Notes under the pieces: model-generated
Told to the model about the DNA's origin: nothing
The model's database searches: none
Seen by the model: only the letters and a program-made list of their open reading frames with translations
From: an uncultured Clostridia bacterium
GTDB lineage: Bacteria > Bacillota > Clostridia > Christensenellales > UBA1242
DNA: 61,988 nucleotides
Direction of reading: 5' to 3'
Assembly: GCA_944351415.1 (NCBI GenBank)
Contig: CALVPQ010000005.1
Location: forward strand, 1-61,988
Shown: piece after piece, positions 6,583 to 61,720 of the stretch
How positions within the stretch are numbered: the first letter of the stretch is position 1
Layout of the letters: the number at the start of each line of letters is the position of its first letter
Made by a program: the position numbers and the translations under genes

Positions 6583-7089
6583 TTAATCTTCATAAAAAAT
6601 AATATGTTCTATTTCAAAATTTCTGTCTTCTAGCTTATCTCTTATAATCGAAGGTTGAAAATTATATTTTCCTATTTCATCAAGAGAAATCCATCTATAA
6701 TCCATATTAACAATCTTATCTCTATCATTTTCGACAAGAGAAAAGTCTTTTTGCTTTTTCTCTTCAATTTCATCAGCTTTTAAAAGATAGAAAAAGCTTA
6801 ATTCATGAAAATCCATCTCTTTCCCTTGGAAAAAGTTTTCGACTATGGCAAATAGATTTTCTACACTAGCGTCTATTCCTGTTTCTTCCTTAAATTCACG
6901 TTCCACAGCCATTTTTGTATCTTCGCCAAGCATAACATGTCCACCTGGACAACACGTAAAACCAGTTTTATTCATTTCAACTATTAATACCTTGTTATTT
7001 CTAATTAGGATACCATTAACCCTAAACTTAAATTTTATTCCTTTTTCTTTATCAATTAATTTTATATCCATTTTTACCCCCTTGAACAA
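6583..7089 (-). CDS. NUDIX hydrolase
   Basis: Nudix box GGHVMLGEDTKMAVEREFKEETGI. The start could be the internal Met (MDIKLI). Confidence 0.85.
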   Translation of the reverse strand: MFKGVKMDIKLIDKEKGIKFKFRVNGILIRNNKVLIVEMNKTGFTCCPGGHVMLGEDTKMAVEREFKEETGIDASVENLFAIVENFFQGKEMDFHELSFFYLLKADEIEEKKQKDFSLVENDRDKIVNMDYRWISLDEIGKYNFQPSIIRDKLEDRNFEIEHIIFYED

Positions 7090-7154
7090 ATATTATACCT
7101 AAAAAATACAGCCATGTCAATAAAATTTTTTTTACACGCTTTTGCCATTAAGTT

Positions 7155-7188
7155 AAAATAAAAAAAATCACTGCCAAAATGCAATGAT
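7155..7188 (-). terminator. terminator at end of alpha operon (after rplQ)
   Basis: Imperfect 8-bp stem ATCACTGC/GCAATGAT followed by a long U-run on the minus strand. Confidence 0.6.
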
Positions 7189-7211
7189 TTTTTAATCAAA
7201 ATTTGTTAATA

Positions 7212-7721
7212 TTATATTAATTCAACGATTGCCATTTCAGCACTATCGCCTCTTCTCTGTCCAAGCTTAACTATTCTAGTATAGCCACCACCTTGACCAT
7301 TCTCTTTATTTCTTGCTGCATATTTTGGTGCATAAAGGTTAAAGATTTTTTCAAGAAGTGGGTGATTAATTCCTTGTGTTCTTGCCTCAAAAGCTTCAAT
7401 TGATTCCTTTGGCTTTCTTTGTTCTTGTCTATCCATAACATAAGCCATTATTGCTCTACGTGCTTGAAGTTTTTTAGGTCCATCATTAGAAACAGTTTTC
7501 TTAACTTTAACTCCCTTTTCATCTTTAATTTCTTTTTGAACTTTTGTGATGTCTTCATAAGAATTGATAGCAAGAGTTAATATCTTTTCTGCCTTACTTC
7601 TAACTGCCTTAGCCCTAGCAACTGTGGTTTCAACTTTTCCAAACCATAAAAGGTCTGAAACAAGTCCGCGTAACATAGAATTTTTTTCTTTACTTGGTCT
7701 ACCTAATTTTGCATTAGCCAT
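7212..7721 (-). CDS. rplQ: 50S ribosomal protein L17 (with internal/C-terminal expansion, 169 aa)
   Basis: GRPSKEKNSMLRGLVSDLLWFGKVETTVARAKAVRSKAEK matches the L17 N-terminal signature. Its position after rpoA also fits. Confidence 0.93.
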   Translation of the reverse strand: MANAKLGRPSKEKNSMLRGLVSDLLWFGKVETTVARAKAVRSKAEKILTLAINSYEDITKVQKEIKDEKGVKVKKTVSNDGPKKLQARRAIMAYVMDRQEQRKPKESIEAFEARTQGINHPLLEKIFNLYAPKYAARNKENGQGGGYTRIVKLGQRRGDSAEMAIVELI

Positions 7722-56751: not shown

Positions 56752-56967
56752 GTCAAGACAACAATCACAACATATAACTCTGTTGACAAAAGTTATTTTG
56801 ACAAAGCAACAAAAGTTTTCAATGAGCAATATAAGATCGAACAACAAGAGGATAAATATAACTCTCTTGACGATGATGAACTCGACTGGGAACTAGAACA
56901 ACTTTTGAGAGAAAAGGAGGAAAGAGAAAGAAGAAAACGAAAAAAAGAAAAAGATTTTGAAATGTAA
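56752..56967 (+). pseudogene. possible 5'-truncated gene remnant (71 codons, no start codon)
   Basis: Open frame VKTTITTYNSVDKSYFDKATKVFNEQYKIEQQEDKYNSLDDDELDWELEQLLREKEERERRKRKKEKDFEM* contains no ATG, GTG or TTG start. Confidence 0.3.
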
Positions 56968-56985
56968 AGTATTTTTGCAAAAGTG

Positions 56986-57013
56986 TTGATTTTTTCATAT
57001 TTTGTGATATAAT
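56986..57013 (+). promoter_or_regulatory. tyrS leader promoter
   Basis: TTGATT (56986-91), a 16-nt spacer, then extended -10 TGATATAAT (57005-13). Confidence 0.65.
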
Positions 57014-57034
57014 ATAAAATATAAGGAGTAAAAA

Positions 57035-57082
57035 ATGACAAAGACTTTCGCATTAAATTCATATTATTACTACTACATTTAA
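57035..57082 (+). CDS. Tyr-rich leader peptide MTKTFALNSYYYYYI (15 aa)
   Basis: ATG lies 8 nt after an AAGGAG RBS. Codons 10-14 are TAT TAT TAC TAC TAC and the stop is TAA at 57080-82. It lies directly upstream of the tyrS attenuator hairpins. Confidence 0.7.
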   Translation: MTKTFALNSYYYYYI

Positions 57083-57126
57083 ATTGCTATATGTAGGAGT
57101 TTTTGCGAGAAATAAAAATAAAACAT

Positions 57127-57164
57127 CTGCCATATAGCAATTAGCTGTGTGGCAGTTTTCTTTT
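57127..57164 (+). terminator. attenuator terminator 1 of tyrS leader
   Basis: 12-bp stem CTGCCATATAGC / GCTGTGTGGCAG (two G-U pairs), 5-nt loop AATTA, then TTTTCTTTT. Confidence 0.7.
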
Positions 57165-57170
57165 AAATGG

Positions 57171-57213
57171 AACATCTGTCACAAATTTTGATTCTTGGCA
57201 GATGTTTTTTATT
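57171..57213 (+). terminator. attenuator terminator 2 of tyrS leader
   Basis: 11-bp stem AACATCTGTCA / TGGCAGATGTT (one G-U pair), 14-nt loop, then TTTTATT. Confidence 0.7.
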
Positions 57214-57226
57214 AAAAGGAGACCTT

Positions 57227-57277
57227 ATGTTTTTTAGAAAAACCTACGCCCTTATGGGCGTGAAAAATTACTTATAG
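57227..57277 (+). CDS. possible second small uORF MFFRKTYALMGVKNYL (16 aa)
   Basis: ATG after an AAAGGAGA RBS. It contains the GC hairpin ACGCCC-TTAT-GGGCGT (57246-57261). Translation is unproven. Confidence 0.3.
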   Translation: MFFRKTYALMGVKNYL

Positions 57278-57313
57278 AACAAAAATATGATAAAATAATA
57301 AAGGAGAAAAAAT

Positions 57314-58540
57314 ATGTTTAATAAAAATGGATTTGAGTTGTTGGAAGAACGTGGATTTGTTTTTCAAACCACTCATAGAGAAGAAATAAAAAAAATATTA
57401 AGTGAAAAGTCGATTACTTTTTATATTGGTATTGATCCAACTGCTGATGATTTGCATATTGGACACTTTTTTGGGTTAAGAATGGCACGAATTTTGCAGG
57501 ATTGCGGACATAAGTGCATTGTGCTTGTTGGTGGAGCTACCGCTTTAATTGGGGATCCTACAAACAAAAGTGATATGCGAAAAATGCTTTCAAAAGAAGA
57601 AGTTGCTCGAAATGCAAATGAAATAAAAAGCATTCTAAATAGATTTGTTAAAACAACAGGTGATAATCCTGCAATAGTTGTAGATAATGCTGATTGGCTA
57701 AAGCCTTTGGGCTATATTGATTTTCTACGAGAAGTTGGTGTGCATTTTAACGTAAATGAAATGCTAACAAAAGATCTATACAAAAATCGTCTTGCGAAAG
57801 GAGGATTAACTTTTATGGAAATGGGTTATATGCTTATGCAGGCTTTTGATTTTGTTCATCTAAATGATAAGTTTAATTGCATTCTTCAAATTGGTGGATC
57901 TGATCAATGGGGAAACATTTGTGCTGGTGTAGACCTTTCGAGAAAAATGAATTTTCAAAATGGAACACATAGACCTTTAATGATGGGGCTCGTTTGTCCG
58001 CTCCTAACAAACGCGGAAGGAATAAAAATGGGAAAAACAGAAAAGGGGACATTGTGGGTTTCCAGAAGTAAAACATCTGCTTTTGAGTTTTTCCAACATT
58101 TTGTGAATTGTTTAGACGCCGATGTTGAAAGATTGTTAAGATTTTTTACAGACCTGCCAATTGCCGGAATTAAAAAAATGTGTAAAGAAGATATTGTTGA
58201 AGCCAAAAAATTTATGGCTTTTAAAACTACCGAACTTGTTCATGGAACTGCAGAAGCATTGAAAGCACAAGAAACTGCTAACAATCTTTTTATAAGCGGG
58301 AATGCTGATGATATGCCACGAGAAGTAATTATTTGCGAAAAACAAATAAACATTTTAGATTTTTTGTCCAAACTTAGCATAATAAAATCCAAATCGGAGG
58401 CTCGCAGGCTTATTGAACAAGGTGGTATTTTAATTGAAAATGAAAGGAAAAATAATATAAATGAAGTTTTACAAGTTAAAAATGAAATGGTTGTAAAGAA
58501 AGGTAAAAAGACTTTTGTTAAAGTTATAGTAAAAAAATAG
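57314..58540 (+). CDS. tyrS: tyrosine--tRNA ligase
   Basis: HIGH motif (DDLHIGHF), KMSKS-type KMGKT, C-terminal S4 domain SKSEARRLIEQGG, 408 aa. Confidence 0.95.
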   Translation: MFNKNGFELLEERGFVFQTTHREEIKKILSEKSITFYIGIDPTADDLHIGHFFGLRMARILQDCGHKCIVLVGGATALIGDPTNKSDMRKMLSKEEVARNANEIKSILNRFVKTTGDNPAIVVDNADWLKPLGYIDFLREVGVHFNVNEMLTKDLYKNRLAKGGLTFMEMGYMLMQAFDFVHLNDKFNCILQIGGSDQWGNICAGVDLSRKMNFQNGTHRPLMMGLVCPLLTNAEGIKMGKTEKGTLWVSRSKTSAFEFFQHFVNCLDADVERLLRFFTDLPIAGIKKMCKEDIVEAKKFMAFKTTELVHGTAEALKAQETANNLFISGNADDMPREVIICEKQINILDFLSKLSIIKSKSEARRLIEQGGILIENERKNNINEVLQVKNEMVVKKGKKTFVKVIVKK

Positions 58541-58694
58541 TTACTGTTGCAAATTGTTGCAAATATATCAGTTTTAGATAGTTCTATAAAGATTTAGACC
58601 GAAAGTAGAATTAGATTATTTTCGGTCTATTTTTTTGCTAAAATTTGTACCAAAAAACATTTGCAACAAATTTTAGGTACATTTGCAACAGTAA
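58541..58694. repeat. nested inverted-repeat element (4 copies of TGTTGCAAAT) enclosing the tyrS terminator
   Basis: Outer arms TTACTGTTGCAAAT (58541-54) / ATTTGCAACAGTAA (58681-94) are perfect. Inner arms TGTTGCAAAT (58555-64) / ATTTGCAACA (58659-68) are also perfect. Confidence 0.75.
58596..58637 (+). terminator. tyrS rho-independent terminator
   Basis: Stem AGACCGAAA/TTTCGGTCT (58596-604 / 58620-28) followed by ATTTTTTT. Confidence 0.8.
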
Positions 58695-58808
58695 AATGAT
58701 AAAATTTTAATGTTTATAAATTTGTATTTTTATGTTTTATGTTTTAAATTTAAAATCGCTATAATCCCCTATTTATAAGGCATATAGCGATTTTTTAAAT
58801 AAAAAAAT

Positions 58809-58827
58809 GAGAGCAAAATTTGCTCTC
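58809..58827 (-). terminator. terminator downstream of the tRNA fragment
   Basis: Stem GAGAGCA/TGCTCTC followed by a U-run on the minus strand. Confidence 0.6.
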
Positions 58828-58832
58828 AAATT

Positions 58833-58877
58833 TGGTAGAGATGAGTGGACTCGAACCACCGACCCCCACCTTATCAG
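58833..58877 (-). pseudogene. 3' fragment of a tRNA-Ile(GAU)-like gene (anticodon loop to CCA); candidate att site
   Basis: Reverse complement CTGATAAGGTGGGGGTCGGTGGTTCGAGTCCACTCATCTCTACCA matches tRNA-Ile from the anticodon loop CUGAUAA through the T-arm GGTGGTTCGAGTCCACT and CCA. The sequence upstream of it (TATTTATT) cannot form the 5' half. Confidence 0.7.
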
Positions 58878-59118
58878 AATAAATATTTTTTATTCAAAAA
58901 TTAAACACTTTATCACAAAACCTTATATTTTATATATCGTATAGACTTTGAAAAATAAATTTGTTGTCAAATAATTTTACGACTTGACAACAGTTGACAG
59001 CAGAAGTACTTAAATTGAGCAACTATGACTATATAAAACTATCTAAAACTTTAAAAAACTGTTTAAATTTTTTATAACATAAATTTCCCTTATCGGCAAA
59101 ATTAAAATGTTTATTTGC

Positions 59119-59147
59119 TTGACTTTTTGCCGATATTTTTATATAAT
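59119..59147 (+). promoter_or_regulatory. promoter of GNAT gene (probable leaderless transcript)
   Basis: TTGACT (59119-24), 17 nt, TATAAT (59142-47). The ATG starts 7 nt after the -10 box and no RBS is present. Confidence 0.55.
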
Positions 59148-59153
59148 GCAAAT

Positions 59154-59624
59154 ATGGAAATCGTTGAATATAAAGCAAAATATAAAGAAGATGTTAAAAA
59201 TATTCTTGTCGAACTTCAAGAATATATTGTTTCTATTGATCATTGGCATTTAAATATAATAACGCCAGATTACAGAAAAAAGTATTTTGAAAAGACAATA
59301 AAAAATTGTTCAGTCATTTTCTTAGCAATTGAAGAAGAAAAAGTTATAGGTTTGATTTGTGGCAATCTAATTAAATATGACAAATATGATTTGTGCGATT
59401 ACACTTGTCCTAAAACGGGGCACATTGAAGAACTTATTGTAAGCAAAAATACAAGAAATAAAGGTGTCGGACAATTATTATTAAATAAAATGGAATATTA
59501 TTTTAAATCTATTGGTTGTGAATATTGTCATATTGATGTTTTTGAGCCTAATGAAATTGGAAAGAATTTTTATTTAAAAAATAATTATACAACAAGAATG
59601 AGAAGTTTATCTAAAAAATTGTAA
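59154..59624 (+). CDS. GNAT family N-acetyltransferase
   Basis: IEELIVSKNTRNKGVGQLLL acetyl-CoA-binding motif (R/Q-x-x-G-x-G). The start is set at MEIVEYK. The TTG start in the track lies inside the promoter. Confidence 0.8.
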   Translation: MEIVEYKAKYKEDVKNILVELQEYIVSIDHWHLNIITPDYRKKYFEKTIKNCSVIFLAIEEEKVIGLICGNLIKYDKYDLCDYTCPKTGHIEELIVSKNTRNKGVGQLLLNKMEYYFKSIGCEYCHIDVFEPNEIGKNFYLKNNYTTRMRSLSKKL

Positions 59625-59633
59625 GGAGAAATT

Positions 59634-60521
59634 ATGAAATATCTTTCAGTTAGTGAAGTTGCGAAAAAATGGAGTTTGAGCGAAAGGTCAGTTCGAAATT
59701 ATTGTGCGAAAGGCAGAATTAAAGGAGCTTTTTTAACAGGTAAAACTTGGAATATTCCAGAAGATGCTATAAAACCTAATAGAGTTGATGAAAGAAAATT
59801 TAGCGATAACGAACTTTTGAATATTTTAAAAGAAGAAAAAGATATGCGTCTTAAAGGAGGAATATATCATAAAACACAAATTGCATTAACATATAATTCA
59901 AATCATATTGAAGGTAGCACTCTCACAGAAGAACAAACAAGACTTATATTTGAAACAAATACAATTGGAGAAACAAAAGGAGTTAAAGTTGATGATATTG
60001 TAGAAACAAATAATCACTTTAAATGTTTTGACCTTATTATAGATAATGCAAAGAAACCCTTAACTGAAAAATTCATAAAAGAACTACATTTTACCTTAAA
60101 AGTTGGAACAAGTGATAGTTTAAAATCTTGGTTTAATGTTGGTGATTACAAAAGTCGCCCAAACGAAGTTGGTGGTAATGAAACTTGTCAACCCGAGAAT
60201 GTCGCAAAAGAAATGAAACAACTGTTGACAACATACAATTCGCTAAAAGATAAAACTATAGAAAATATTATTGAATTTCATTATCATTTTGAAAATATAC
60301 ACCCTTTTCAAGATGGCAACGGTAGAATTGGTAGACTTATAATGTTTAAGGAATGTTTAACAAACAATATCGTTCCATTTATTATAGAAGATGAAATAAA
60401 AATGTATTATTATCGAGGACTAAGAGAATGGCAAAACGAAAAAGGCTTTTTAATAGACACTTGCCTTTCAGCCCAAGACAAATACAAAAAATATTTAGAT
60501 TATTTCAAAATAAATTACTAA
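59634..60521 (+). CDS. Fic family protein with N-terminal excisionase/MerR-like HTH
   Basis: Canonical Fic motif HPFQDGNGRIGR. The N-terminus is LSVSEVAKKWSLSERSVRNYCAKGRI. Confidence 0.9.
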   Translation: MKYLSVSEVAKKWSLSERSVRNYCAKGRIKGAFLTGKTWNIPEDAIKPNRVDERKFSDNELLNILKEEKDMRLKGGIYHKTQIALTYNSNHIEGSTLTEEQTRLIFETNTIGETKGVKVDDIVETNNHFKCFDLIIDNAKKPLTEKFIKELHFTLKVGTSDSLKSWFNVGDYKSRPNEVGGNETCQPENVAKEMKQLLTTYNSLKDKTIENIIEFHYHFENIHPFQDGNGRIGRLIMFKECLTNNIVPFIIEDEIKMYYYRGLREWQNEKGFLIDTCLSAQDKYKKYLDYFKINY

Positions 60522-60534
60522 AAGGATTTTATTA

Positions 60535-61173
60535 ATGGTTAAAAGATTATCTAGAAAACAGCAAAAAGTTATAAGAAATGTGGCTCACAACATTATAAAT
60601 TATTGGCACAAAGAATTAAAAAGAAATTATGTTTTTACTCAAAGAATAGTGGGCTCAGGAGCGTTAGGGACTATGCTCGTTGATAATAATGGAGATTATG
60701 ATATAGATTACCAAATTTTATTAACTAGCAAATCTAAAATAGATTTATCAAATGCAACCCAAATAAAAAACGATTTTTTTAAATCTTTGCAATCTTACAA
60801 GGATGATAATCATAAGGTTGTAAAAATTGAAAATTCAACCACCGCAATTACTTACAAGTGTTTAAGTAACGGACAAAATTTTCATATAGATTTTGTGATC
60901 ATCAAGACATTTCCACAAAATAATCAAATTATTAGGAGAAACATAAAAGAAGAAACGATAACTAAAAATGAATTTACTTGGAATACATTGCCAAAATATA
61001 ATGAAGCATACAAGATTTTTAGGAGTTGGACCATTGATAAAAAGACTAAGTTTATTAAATATTTATTGCCAAAGAAAATAAAAGAAAAAGAAAAAAATGA
61101 AAATGATCCAACAAAAATTTCATCATCACAATTATTTATAAGAGAGGTAAATAATTATGACAATAAAAAATGA
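60535..61173 (+). CDS. minimal nucleotidyltransferase (MNT/SMODS-like)
   Basis: Pol-beta-type motif RIVGSGALGT...NGDYDIDY (GS...D.D). 212 aa. It overlaps the downstream HEPN gene by 17 nt. Confidence 0.65.
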   Translation: MVKRLSRKQQKVIRNVAHNIINYWHKELKRNYVFTQRIVGSGALGTMLVDNNGDYDIDYQILLTSKSKIDLSNATQIKNDFFKSLQSYKDDNHKVVKIENSTTAITYKCLSNGQNFHIDFVIIKTFPQNNQIIRRNIKEETITKNEFTWNTLPKYNEAYKIFRSWTIDKKTKFIKYLLPKKIKEKEKNENDPTKISSSQLFIREVNNYDNKK

Positions 61174-61720
61174 AATATTAGATTATGATAAACACAAAGA
61201 TGATATTGATAGGTGGGTTAATGTTAAAGGAGAAGTGAAGTATTTAGAATTTGTTAAAATGTTAAAAAACAATCAAATTGACTGTAAATGGGGAACCGTT
61301 TCTGATTTATATAGATATGATAAAAGATTGCAAATTAACCTTTTTAAGTACATGTCATTCTTTGAAGAATATATAAGAGCAAAGTTGTGGAATAGCAACA
61401 AATTTAAAAAGTATAAAGACTTAAATAAAAAATCTATGAATGAATTGATCATTTATATTTGTAGGAATAAAAAGTTATTACAAACAAATTTTAATGATGT
61501 ATATATAGAACAACTTTACAATATTAAAAAAATTAGAAACACAATAAGCCATAACGATATAATATTAAAATGCCACAATAATAAAAATGATTATAAACAT
61601 TTGATAAAAGATTTATATTTTGCCTTACCACAAGAATATAAAGAAAATTTTAAAAACGACATTATAAAATGTGGGGTTGAATTAAATATAAATAAAATAT
61701 TTGTTGTTGATTTTACATAA
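61157..61720 (+). CDS. HEPN-type Abi_2 (AbiD/AbiF-like) protein
   Basis: R-x4-H HEPN motif in IKKIRNTISHNDIIL, plus YDKRLQINLFKYMSFFEEYIRAKL, which is typical of the Abi_2 family. Confidence 0.65.
   Translation: MTIKNEILDYDKHKDDIDRWVNVKGEVKYLEFVKMLKNNQIDCKWGTVSDLYRYDKRLQINLFKYMSFFEEYIRAKLWNSNKFKKYKDLNKKSMNELIIYICRNKKLLQTNFNDVYIEQLYNIKKIRNTISHNDIILKCHNNKNDYKHLIKDLYFALPQEYKENFKNDIIKCGVELNINKIFVVDFT

Follow-up and report, generated by a model that had tools for sequence, protein, structure and literature searches.

The gene tyrS of an uncultured Clostridia bacterium (contig CALVPQ010000005.1, of which a stretch of 61,988 nucleotides (nt), here called the window, was analyzed) is preceded by a leader at positions 56986 to 57313 that we propose to be a transcription attenuator read by the ribosome. 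From 5' to 3', it holds a distal promoter (P1); a 15-codon open reading frame (ORF1) with its own ribosome-binding site (RBS) of the Shine-Dalgarno (SD) type and a run of Tyr codons; a stack of helices around a hairpin termed 1:2; two intrinsic terminators (T1 and T2), each with an alternative partner (antiterminators AT1 and AT2); a second mini-ORF (ORF2) with one Tyr codon at the start of a GC-rich hairpin (hairpin 3); and a proximal promoter (P2) just before the RBS of tyrS (Table 1).

The tyrS leader and its conservation

P1 is the top promoter-like site between 56500 and 58800 (score 10/12, TG present), and its counterpart TTGACT-17-TATAAT is the top promoter match in three related loci (L014, L009, and L029). 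The ATG of ORF1 lies about 10 to 15 nt from the presumed start of P1 transcription, that is, at the 5' end of the leader transcript. Its five consecutive Tyr codons (TAT TAT TAC TAC TAC, 57062-76) overlap segment 1 of hairpin 1:2, and the 5' strand of AT1 (57082-93) directly adjoins the ORF1 stop codon (57080-82). The 300-nt leader folds at -79.5 kcal/mol, compared with -46.5 +/- 4.1 for shuffled sequences (z = -7.99; 0 of 200 shuffles equal), the region contains five terminator-like sites where 0.8 would be expected, and ORF1 is the sole RBS-preceded short ORF in the window that combines a run of one residue with an intergenic position before a gene. Because of the fold score, the excess of terminators, and the uniqueness of ORF1, we can discard chance as the origin of the leader structure. 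No second copy of the leader motif was found in the window.

Many of these elements had been described in an earlier note made from the sequence alone. The promoter (TTGATT-16-TGnTATAAT), the AAGGAG RBS, and the 15-codon frame with its stop at 57080 are present as it had read them, the pairing of segment 1 (57069-78) with 57091-100 holds at 9 of 10 positions, and T1, with its 12-bp stem and U4CU4 tail, was recovered by a terminator scan. Some pairings proved slightly longer than it had given: the perfect complementarity of 57083-93 to 57131-41 extends to 12 bp (57082-93/57131-42), and the stem of T2, also followed by the U-run reported, gains one pair. The 8-bp pairing of the T1 3' arm with the T2 5' arm (57176-83) is present and includes one G-U pair. 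What the note had missed is ORF2 with hairpin 3, P2, and the clade-wide set of leaders described below.

Relatives were collected with a TyrS scan that took one genome per species and gave 53 loci (labeled here with L-numbers); the testable set comprises the 34 clade loci with enough upstream DNA, whose TyrS proteins are 70 to 98% identical. They belong to low-GC gut metagenome-assembled genomes (MAGs) labeled uncultured Clostridia/Clostridiales, Christensenellales, "Ca. Onthoplasma" (placed in the Christensenellaceae by NCBI), "Ca. Caccovivens," and "Ca. Caccosoma." The best TyrS match (98%) comes from the human-gut genome MGYG-HGUT-04512, and sporulation genes are present in the flanks of clade loci.

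The leader element is kept in 33 of these 34 relatives, and an RBS-preceded ORF ending in a Tyr run lies 170 to 530 nt upstream of tyrS in 32. ORF1 is 15 codons long in 32/34, with five Tyr codons in 26/34 and at least four in 32/34, and its RBS-like motif and ATG are conserved in 34/34 leaders. The gap between the stop codon and the GCUAUAUG core of the AT1 5' strand is 2 to 4 nt in 30/34, while the N-terminal half of the peptide varies freely. Some synonymous TAT/TAC swaps are seen in unpaired Tyr codons (L008 and L009). Nearly all these relatives have the Tyr run and the alternative pairings, and compensatory changes occur in the stems, in keeping with what the earlier note expected of orthologous leaders. 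A variant leader in L035 (2664-2711), MTTILTSNLYYWWTY, ends in YYWWTY (two Tyr, two Trp, Thr, Tyr) and has compensating changes that preserve hairpin 1:2; it could be a drifted leader or one of mixed specificity. Almost every locus has other genes on the upstream side of the leader, while the link between leader and tyrS persists, so the leader travels with tyrS.

The sole testable clade locus without the leader is L033 (2850-3000), where P1, the leader ORF, both terminators, and ORF2 have been lost; hairpin 3 (ACGCCCGTTTGGGCGT) and P2 are kept and are preceded by an unrelated terminator-like hairpin. This natural deletion means that tyrS can rely on P2. A metagenome scan with the pattern TACTACA-N4-14-GCTRTATGTAG matched at least 120 stretches; among the matches listed, three passed the filter (a Tyr-codon pair or the T1 motif), none of them with the T1 motif and all chance-like, and the scan was uninformative about a regulon.

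The absence of a T-box, also claimed in the earlier note, was confirmed in several ways. The covariance model (RF00230) gave no match in the window at the Rfam gathering score, no T-box is among the 16 Rfam matches with E values up to 10 in 56850-57450, and the window has no match to the consensus AGGGUGGNACCGCG with three or fewer mismatches. The clade DNA searched, about 440 kb that takes in all testable tyrS loci and 147 kb with the genes of the sister leaders treated below, is likewise free of T-boxes. The model does detect T-boxes directly upstream of tyrS in the nearest outgroup loci, L045 (TyrS 54% identical; 97 bits) and L038 (56%; 90.8 bits). Judging from this distribution, the locus appears to be a clean natural case of one sensing system replaced by another at the same gene, a T-box by a leader peptide at tyrS. 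Curated Rfam families (release 15) gave only subthreshold, chance-like matches in the leader; the best of them, freshwater-2 (23.8 bits against a cutoff of 49.9) and the trpB motif (23.6 against 59) were rejected as far below their thresholds. SAM-I riboswitches are present at L014 (2352-2443, minus strand) and L177 (7833-7920, upstream of a SAM synthetase gene), so the clade retains metabolite riboswitches though no T-box was seen.

TABLE 1 Features of the tyrS leader in the window and location of the Asn leaders in related loci
Feature	Position	Strand	Sequence, extent, or basis
Promoter P1	56986-57013	+	TTGATT 56986-91, 16-nt spacer, TG-extended TATAAT ending 57013
Shine-Dalgarno of leader ORF1	57023-57028	+	AAGGAG; sequence read
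Leader ORF1	57035-57082	+	MTKTFALNSYYYYYI, 15 codons; ATG 57035, TAA 57080-82
Anti-antiterminator stack (1:2 stack)	57046-57110	+	minimum-energy fold
Outer helix of 1:2 stack	57046-52/57104-10	+	minimum-energy fold
Middle helix of 1:2 stack	57055-60/57097-102	+	minimum-energy fold
Hairpin 1:2	57073-78/57091-96; alternative register 57069-78/57091-100	+	minimum-energy fold, RNAalifold consensus
U5 after hairpin 1:2	57100-04	+	likely pause site
Antiterminator 1 (AT1)	57082-93/57131-42	+	12 bp; takes T1 5' arm and loop
Terminator 1 (T1)	stem 57127-38/57144-55; U-tract 57156-64	+	12 bp; UUUUCUUUU (U4CU4); terminator scan
Antiterminator 2 (AT2, relay)	T1 3' arm 57148-55/T2 5' arm 57176-83	+	stepwise folding
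Terminator 2 (T2)	stem 57170-81/57196-207; U6 57205-10	+	12 bp; folds, RNAalifold consensus
Second mini-ORF (ORF2)	57216-57277	+	MFFRKTYALMGVKNYL; RBS AAGGAG 57216-21, ATG 57227
Hairpin 3	57246-57261	+	ACGCCC-UUAU-GGGCGU; begins inside ORF2 Tyr codon
Proximal promoter P2	57268-57296	+	TTACTT, 17 nt, TGaTAAAAT (extended -10)
tyrS	57301-58540	+	408 aa; RBS AAGGAG 57301-06, ATG 57314; TIGR00234 match, 377.5 bits
Asn leaders	L026:2904-3330; L035:462-800; L182:5126-5418; L184:7714-8000; L185:1-253; L186:9591-10000; L187:9752-10000		

The surroundings of the leader and of tyrS hold other features. Just upstream of P1 lies an open frame of about 71 codons (56753-56967) with a Lys/Glu/Arg-rich tail (...KEERERRKRKKEKDFEM*), in which the first ATG, GTG, or TTG start does not come before 56905 and which is common only to L001; this may be what is left of a gene, or its start codon may be an unusual one. 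About 55 nt past the tyrS stop codon, a strong 14-bp intrinsic terminator with a U7 tail (58595-58629) ends the tyrS transcription unit. Further downstream, 58739-58871 on the plus strand matches the Rfam family HPnc0260 (67.4 bits; region 58739-58885) and overlaps the apparent 3' two-thirds of a minus-strand tRNA gene (T-arm, ...CTCTACCA; about 58836-58882). ARAGORN called no tRNA at 58739-58885, and L001 has two intact tRNAs at the same position. This region and the genes downstream (59115-61720) may be the scar of an integration at a tRNA with its inserted island. In the clade member L036, about 2.7 kb past tyrS, the end of the contig truncates an OLE RNA of which the 5' part is present (6957-7224; RF01071, 134.6 bits).

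Alternative folds and the proposed mechanism

The alternative pairings were assessed in an alignment of 33 leaders (A1), with a slid control in which the pairing partner was shifted by 1 to 3 columns. An unbiased RNAalifold consensus recovered hairpin 1:2, T1, and T2. The terminated fold is paired in 90.7% of the cells, compared with 30 to 47% for the slid control, and 13 of its pairs show double changes; the antiterminated fold (AT1 plus AT2) is paired in 92.2%, compared with 25 to 45%, with seven such pairs. By element, 96% of the pairs are kept in hairpin 1:2 and 91% in AT1, while the paired cells amount to 95% in T1 (four pairs with double changes), 93% in T2 (six pairs), and 95% in AT2. 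As the sequences are highly conserved, absolute covariation is modest, and the slid controls are the stronger evidence.

Some individual changes are informative. L028 and L044 carry GCUGUAUG instead of GCUAUAUG together with CAUACAGC instead of CAUAUAGC, which turns an A-U pair of AT1 into G-C. In L020, both terminators have CCG in place of CUG in their 5' arms, and the T1 3' arm has CGG in place of CAG; in L017, CUGCCA has become CUACCA in both terminators. Through these concerted changes, the T1 3' arm stays complementary to the T2 5' arm, something that neither terminator needs for its own stem. The outer helix of the 1:2 stack (57046-52/57104-10) was left out of the pair counts, its 3' strand being misaligned by MAFFT within a variable spacer, and its covariation was seen by eye only, for instance in UUUACACUAA/UUAGUGUAAA of L031 and L036.

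The order of folding was followed by stepwise folding, with the Tyr codons masked as a mimic of the stalled ribosome. In the masked leader of the window, AT1 is present at -19.1 kcal/mol once the RNA reaches 57143, in the T1 loop, and at an RNA length of 57185 the minimum-energy fold contains both AT1 and AT2 (-31.3 kcal/mol), the outcome that the earlier note had anticipated for such masking. The same succession, AT1 and then AT1 plus AT2, is found in 33/33 leaders, with an AT1 of at least 11 bp in 33/33. In the folds without a ribosome, T1 and T2 form together in 24/33 leaders and hairpin 1:2 in 30/33. The suggestion that a stalling relay would defeat both terminators is upheld by the masked stepwise folds and not by the full-length minimum-energy fold, in which T1 and T2 return. 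Since the fold reverts only after the whole of T2 has been made, the relay from T1 to T2 would be kinetic and not thermodynamic; these models incline us, with some reserve, to accept it.

Ribosome footprints are of established size, and when they are laid over the leader, a Tyr codon in the A site would place the edge of the ribosome at about 57074-86, with hairpin 1:2 broken and most or all of 57082-93 free, while a ribosome at the stop codon would cover the RNA to about 57093 and block AT1. This predicted stall geometry accompanies the other features of a trpL/pheM-type attenuator that the leader has, namely, a 5' ORF with an SD, a cluster of cognate codons, an intrinsic terminator, and an exclusive antiterminator. 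The ORF, hairpin 1:2, both antiterminators, and both terminators are conserved in the 33 aligned leaders, which supports the trp/pheM-type logic first suggested for this locus. We consider it likely, from this comparative evidence, that 56986-57313 is a Tyr-specific, ribosome-mediated leader-peptide transcription attenuator governing P1 read-through into tyrS.

From the sequence elements, conservation, covariation, and order of folding observed here, we infer a mechanism in which ORF1 and ORF2 are translated, stalling selects the fold, and read-through rises in vivo. RNA polymerase would start at P1, and on the extreme 5' end of the RNA a ribosome would translate the 15-codon leader. With Tyr-tRNA(Tyr) plentiful, the ribosome would reach the stop codon and cover 57082-93; with no ribosome, the 1:2 stack would tie up the same strand. 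With this strand blocked, T1 would form, and any escaping polymerase would meet T2. When charged tRNA(Tyr) is scarce, the ribosome would stall at 57062-76, breaking hairpin 1:2 and leaving 57082-93 free to pair with the emerging 5' arm of T1 (AT1); the orphaned 3' arm of T1 would then capture the 5' arm of T2 (AT2), and polymerase would pass both U-tracts into tyrS, its read-through adding to basal transcription from P2. The conserved U-run after hairpin 1:2 may act as a pause that lets the ribosome catch up. As the signal would be charged tRNA(Tyr), the predicted outcome is a homeostatic loop for TyrRS activity, as pheM provides for pheST.

Other explanations of the same leader have to be weighed, the nearest of which accepts attenuation at T1 and does away with the relay: T2 would be an unregulated backup, similar to T1 through duplication. 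T2 does win thermodynamically once fully transcribed, and L026 and the Asn leaders of L182, L184, L186, and L187 work with a single terminator. However, an efficient unregulated T2 would cancel the regulation at T1, and the complementarity of the T1 3' arm to the T2 5' arm, kept across deep divergence, tracks the concerted changes of L017 and L020 and recurs with unrelated stems in L007 and L029, so we regard this version as unlikely. A different possibility is that the leader is a stand-alone unit, a small RNA or a Tyr-rich micropeptide with two fail-safe terminators, and that tyrS is transcribed from P2 only. We find this distinctly improbable: a plain pair of terminators would have no need of AT1 and AT2 conserved with compensatory and concerted changes, a 15-residue peptide with a freely varying N-terminal half is unlikely to be a functional product, the leader is always linked to tyrS despite differing upstream genes, and the codons of the sister leaders track the downstream gene (Asn for aspS-gatCAB and asnA, Trp for trpS). 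These arguments have to be set against a P2 that is conserved and scores well, a locus (L033) that retains P2 and tyrS without the leader, and a masked full-length minimum-energy fold that still has T2.

Sensing could also be direct, by tRNA(Tyr) or a protein without translation, in a degenerate T-box-like or TRAP/PyrR-like device with the UAC repeats as its binding site. The UAU/UAC repeats are near-invariant as nucleotides, and tyrS of Bacillota is classically controlled by tRNA, but there is no T-box model match or T-box sequence here, and the SD, the ATG, the 15-codon frame, and the position of the stop 2 to 4 nt before the GCUAUAUG core are all conserved. The triplets are contiguous, unlike the spacing generally known for TRAP sites, and the sister leaders combine the same layout with codons for other amino acids; all this makes direct sensing extremely improbable. 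Last, the leader might report a general slowing of translation by antibiotics or stress, like erm- or vmlR-type leaders, and not tyrosine. We judge this very improbable, given that the five consecutive codons conserved in the leader are cognate to the downstream synthetase and that sister leaders bear codons cognate to their own genes, even if the AT1 strand would be freed by a stall anywhere in the final third of ORF1 and multilayer leaders that answer ribosome inhibitors exist in Bacillota, according to one report (PMC9226507).

Returning to the Tyr-specific attenuator, several points weigh against it. The full-length masked minimum-energy fold reverts to T1 plus T2 (AT1 plus T2 in several relatives), and the defeat of T2 hinges on predicted kinetics. 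The Tyr run and its flanks are near-invariant in nucleotides, so that selection on the codons and selection on the RNA sequence are not fully separable. All the sequences come from MAGs, and the evidence is of sequence only. P2 means that tyrS need not depend on P1 read-through, as the leaderless L033 illustrates. In Bacillus subtilis, polymerase is reported to outrun the ribosomes, a runaway transcription described in two reports (PMC13323073 and PMC7858274); the same behavior, if true here, would hamper leader-peptide sensing unless the pause at the hairpin plus U5 resynchronizes the two machines.

A second mini-ORF and leaders of other specificities

The single Tyr codon of ORF2 (UAC, 57245-47) starts hairpin 3. 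About 30 relatives keep the RBS and ATG of ORF2 together with the hairpin. Their Tyr codon stays in frame in every case, at +18, +21, or +24, and the position of the stop varies. Hairpin 3 is the only GC hairpin of its kind in the 62-kb window and lies upstream of tyrS in about 32 loci; its stem covaries (CG to UA), and its loop ranges from 3 to 10 nt. ORF2 is missing from the tyrS leader of L185 and broken in L021, so the module is dispensable in some genomes.

Several conventional roles for hairpin 3 were considered and rejected. As an operator for a transcription factor, it would have half-sites with a spacing that varies from 3 to 10 nt; this variable loop and the covarying stem indicate an RNA element and not a protein operator. 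A scan flags it as a terminator of antisense transcripts in the window, L014, and L029, but many Tyr leaders, and the Asn leaders too, lack the U-run, and on the plus strand there is no U-tract that would make it a terminator. A helix that sequesters the tyrS RBS is not supported, no partner near this RBS being present in the folds, and the single occurrence in the window speaks against a generic repeat. Neither arm of hairpin 3 has an alternative partner in the folds, and the tyrS RBS is free in every fold.

The module formed by ORF2 and hairpin 3 is very probably codon specific and translated, and it looks like a second codon-specific checkpoint that would act on read-through transcripts. 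Several read-outs are candidates: a ribosome that stalls when the specifier codon is in its A site may hold hairpin 3 open, the stalled ribosome may shield the downstream mRNA from 5' decay, or the hairpin may be a polymerase pause released by the ORF2 ribosome, which would resynchronize transcription and translation.

P2 is found in the alignment of the relatives as a sigma-70-type promoter (TTGAAA/TTGGAA-16/17-TGnTAWAAT) between hairpin 3 and the tyrS RBS, and in L014, L009, and L029 it is the second-best promoter match after P1, with the TG. Because P2 is conserved before tyrS, the attenuator would be an additive and not the sole control of the gene, with P1 read-through predicted to supplement basal transcription from P2.

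To find leaders of other specificities, the clade DNA was scanned for RBS-preceded ORFs that have a residue run and terminators after it and for mini-ORFs that lead into a GC hairpin, and the clade AspRS was used as a query to fetch further loci. In the flanks of the TyrS relatives (+/-10 kb), no other synthetase gene was found except in L181 (trpS). Leaders with Asn codons precede an operon of non-discriminating aspS and gatCAB in L026, L182/L183, L184, L186, L187, and L185 (5' part cut off), and that of L035 precedes the asnA operon. Their ORF1 has six to eight Asn codons; after it comes one terminator in L026, L182/L183, L184, L186, and L187, and L035 has two. In their ORF2, an Asn codon stands immediately 5' of a GCC...GGC hairpin in 7/7 independent loci (local peptides SNAVAGE, GNAHSGQ, SNALAGE, SNALLGG, TNAHGGA, FNAVAGE, and INAVAGE). 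The hairpin of L184, AAC GCC CAU AGU GGG C, is in essence the Tyr hairpin UAC GCC CAU AUG GGC G of L002 and L020 with a different base at the first position of the codon, and in L185 the same ORF contains another hairpin, with Asn-Asp codons before it.

Two further leaders share the peptide N terminus MKNAVVxQLNI. The one in L029 (4286-4538), downstream of tyrS, has an ORF1, MKNAVVSQLNITTTTILF, with a Thr run (ITTTTI), two cross-complementary terminators, and an ORF2 in which the hairpin ACCC-GAAA-GGGU begins with the Thr codon ACC; the contig stops short of the gene. The one in L007 (5904-6341) has an ORF1, MKNAVVLQLNIVPAPTTDLL, with PAPTT, again followed by two cross-complementary terminators, and an ORF2 (...TPPVMGG) in which the Pro-Pro codons form an arm of the hairpin CCACCC-GUUAU-GGGUGG. 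Downstream of this leader, the next gene has no hidden Markov model match in the 32 residues available, and by eye only it resembles the N terminus of ProRS. L029 and L007 are probable Thr and Pro leaders, respectively. In the stepwise folds of both, the pairing of the T1 3' arm with the T2 5' arm reappears at intermediate lengths although the stem sequences are unrelated, and because of this recurrence the relay looks like design and not accident. A simpler version occurs in L181 (3935-4170), where trpS (TIGR00233, 340.8 bits) is preceded by the 10-codon MFNSFIWWRW and, immediately 5' of its RBS, by one terminator, without ORF2; from its sequence, we can predict attenuation by a Trp leader peptide.

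The codon next to the hairpin follows the specificity of the leader: UAC/UAU-GCCC...GGGC for Tyr, AAU/AAC-GCC...GGC for Asn, ACC-C...GGGU for Thr, and CCA-CCC...GGGUGG for Pro. With families counted and not sequences, the chance of a cognate codon at this place in all four specificities is approximately (1/20)^4, and a coincidence appears very unlikely. A wider reading, to which we give only tentative credit, is that the clade has exchanged T-boxes for a modular, two-stage leader read by the ribosome at tyrS, aspS (non-discriminating)-gatCAB, and asnA and probably at thrS and proS, with a simpler form at trpS. In the first stage, a mini-ORF with a codon run would drive either one terminator or two cross-complementary ones in relay; in the second, another mini-ORF would place one "specifier" codon for the same amino acid against a GC hairpin. 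If this is true, codon swaps would reprogram the specificity, as the specifier does for a T-box, and the second stage would be a so far undescribed type of codon-specific sensor.

Comparison with known systems

The tyrS gene of Bacillota is a textbook T-box gene, and leader-peptide attenuation is considered rare in this phylum. An aminoacyl-tRNA synthetase operon under leader-peptide attenuation is known in Escherichia coli, pheM-pheST. Like pheM, the tyrS leader has a short ORF rich in the codons of the synthetase's own amino acid and mutually exclusive antiterminator and terminator folds, and it would answer to charged tRNA in a homeostatic way. Unlike pheM, which concerns Phe in a gammaproteobacterium and has one terminator, it concerns Tyr in Bacillota, has two interlocked terminators, and adds an extra mini-ORF with its hairpin and a proximal promoter. 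No similarity to pheM was found by sequence or by Rfam model, and Rfam-based annotation of gut MAGs misses leaders of this kind.

The four-segment logic of trpL is also recognizable, with the codons in segment 1, the stop just before segment 2, a 1:2 hairpin followed by U residues as a likely pause, a 2:3 antiterminator, and a 3:4 terminator. However, trpL has two such codons and controls a biosynthetic operon, while the tyrS leader has five, precedes a synthetase gene, and extends the scheme to a six-segment relay (2:3 and then 4:5). The interlocked double terminator would show how sensing by the ribosome can be tightened. With the B. subtilis tyrS T-box (RF00230), the leader shares the gene, the tRNA(Tyr) charging signal, and the read-through of leader terminators; the proposed sensor is the translating ribosome and not a direct tRNA-RNA contact, and there is no Stem I or specifier loop. 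The Tyr leader would do the job of the T-box on tyrS across a clade of uncultured gut Clostridia.

Within Bacillota, the hisS paralogues and hisZ of the Bacillus cereus group are predicted to have His leader peptides in front of them (Naville & Gautheret 2010, PMC2965389), and for his operons of Firmicutes, His-leader attenuators have been reported (PMC9413887). These are likewise attenuators in place of T-boxes, including at a synthetase-type gene, and likewise predictions from comparative genomics. They have a single terminator and no second codon-bearing mini-ORF has been described for them, whereas the leader reported here concerns another amino acid and lineage and belongs to a set that covers several genes of one clade (tyrS, trpS, aspS-gatCAB, asnA, and probable proS and thrS). 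The cognate codon of ORF2, seen in four specificities, suggests a regulatory device that is codon specific and for which no mechanism has been described. Staphylococcus aureus ilvD, with a Leu/Ile-rich attenuator peptide that has genetic support (PMC5794164), is another case of leader-peptide attenuation in Bacillota where B. subtilis uses a T-box; it differs in being a biosynthetic operon with a 26-aa peptide of mixed codons and an antiterminator that pairs with the poly-U tail, without a tandem relay. A full-text literature search of incomplete coverage returned no published Tyr leader peptide, leader-peptide control of tyrS, or Asn leader for gatCAB. Against these systems, the attenuation principle is known, and what is new here is the amino acid, the gene, the lineage, the two-terminator relay, and the appended codon-specific module.

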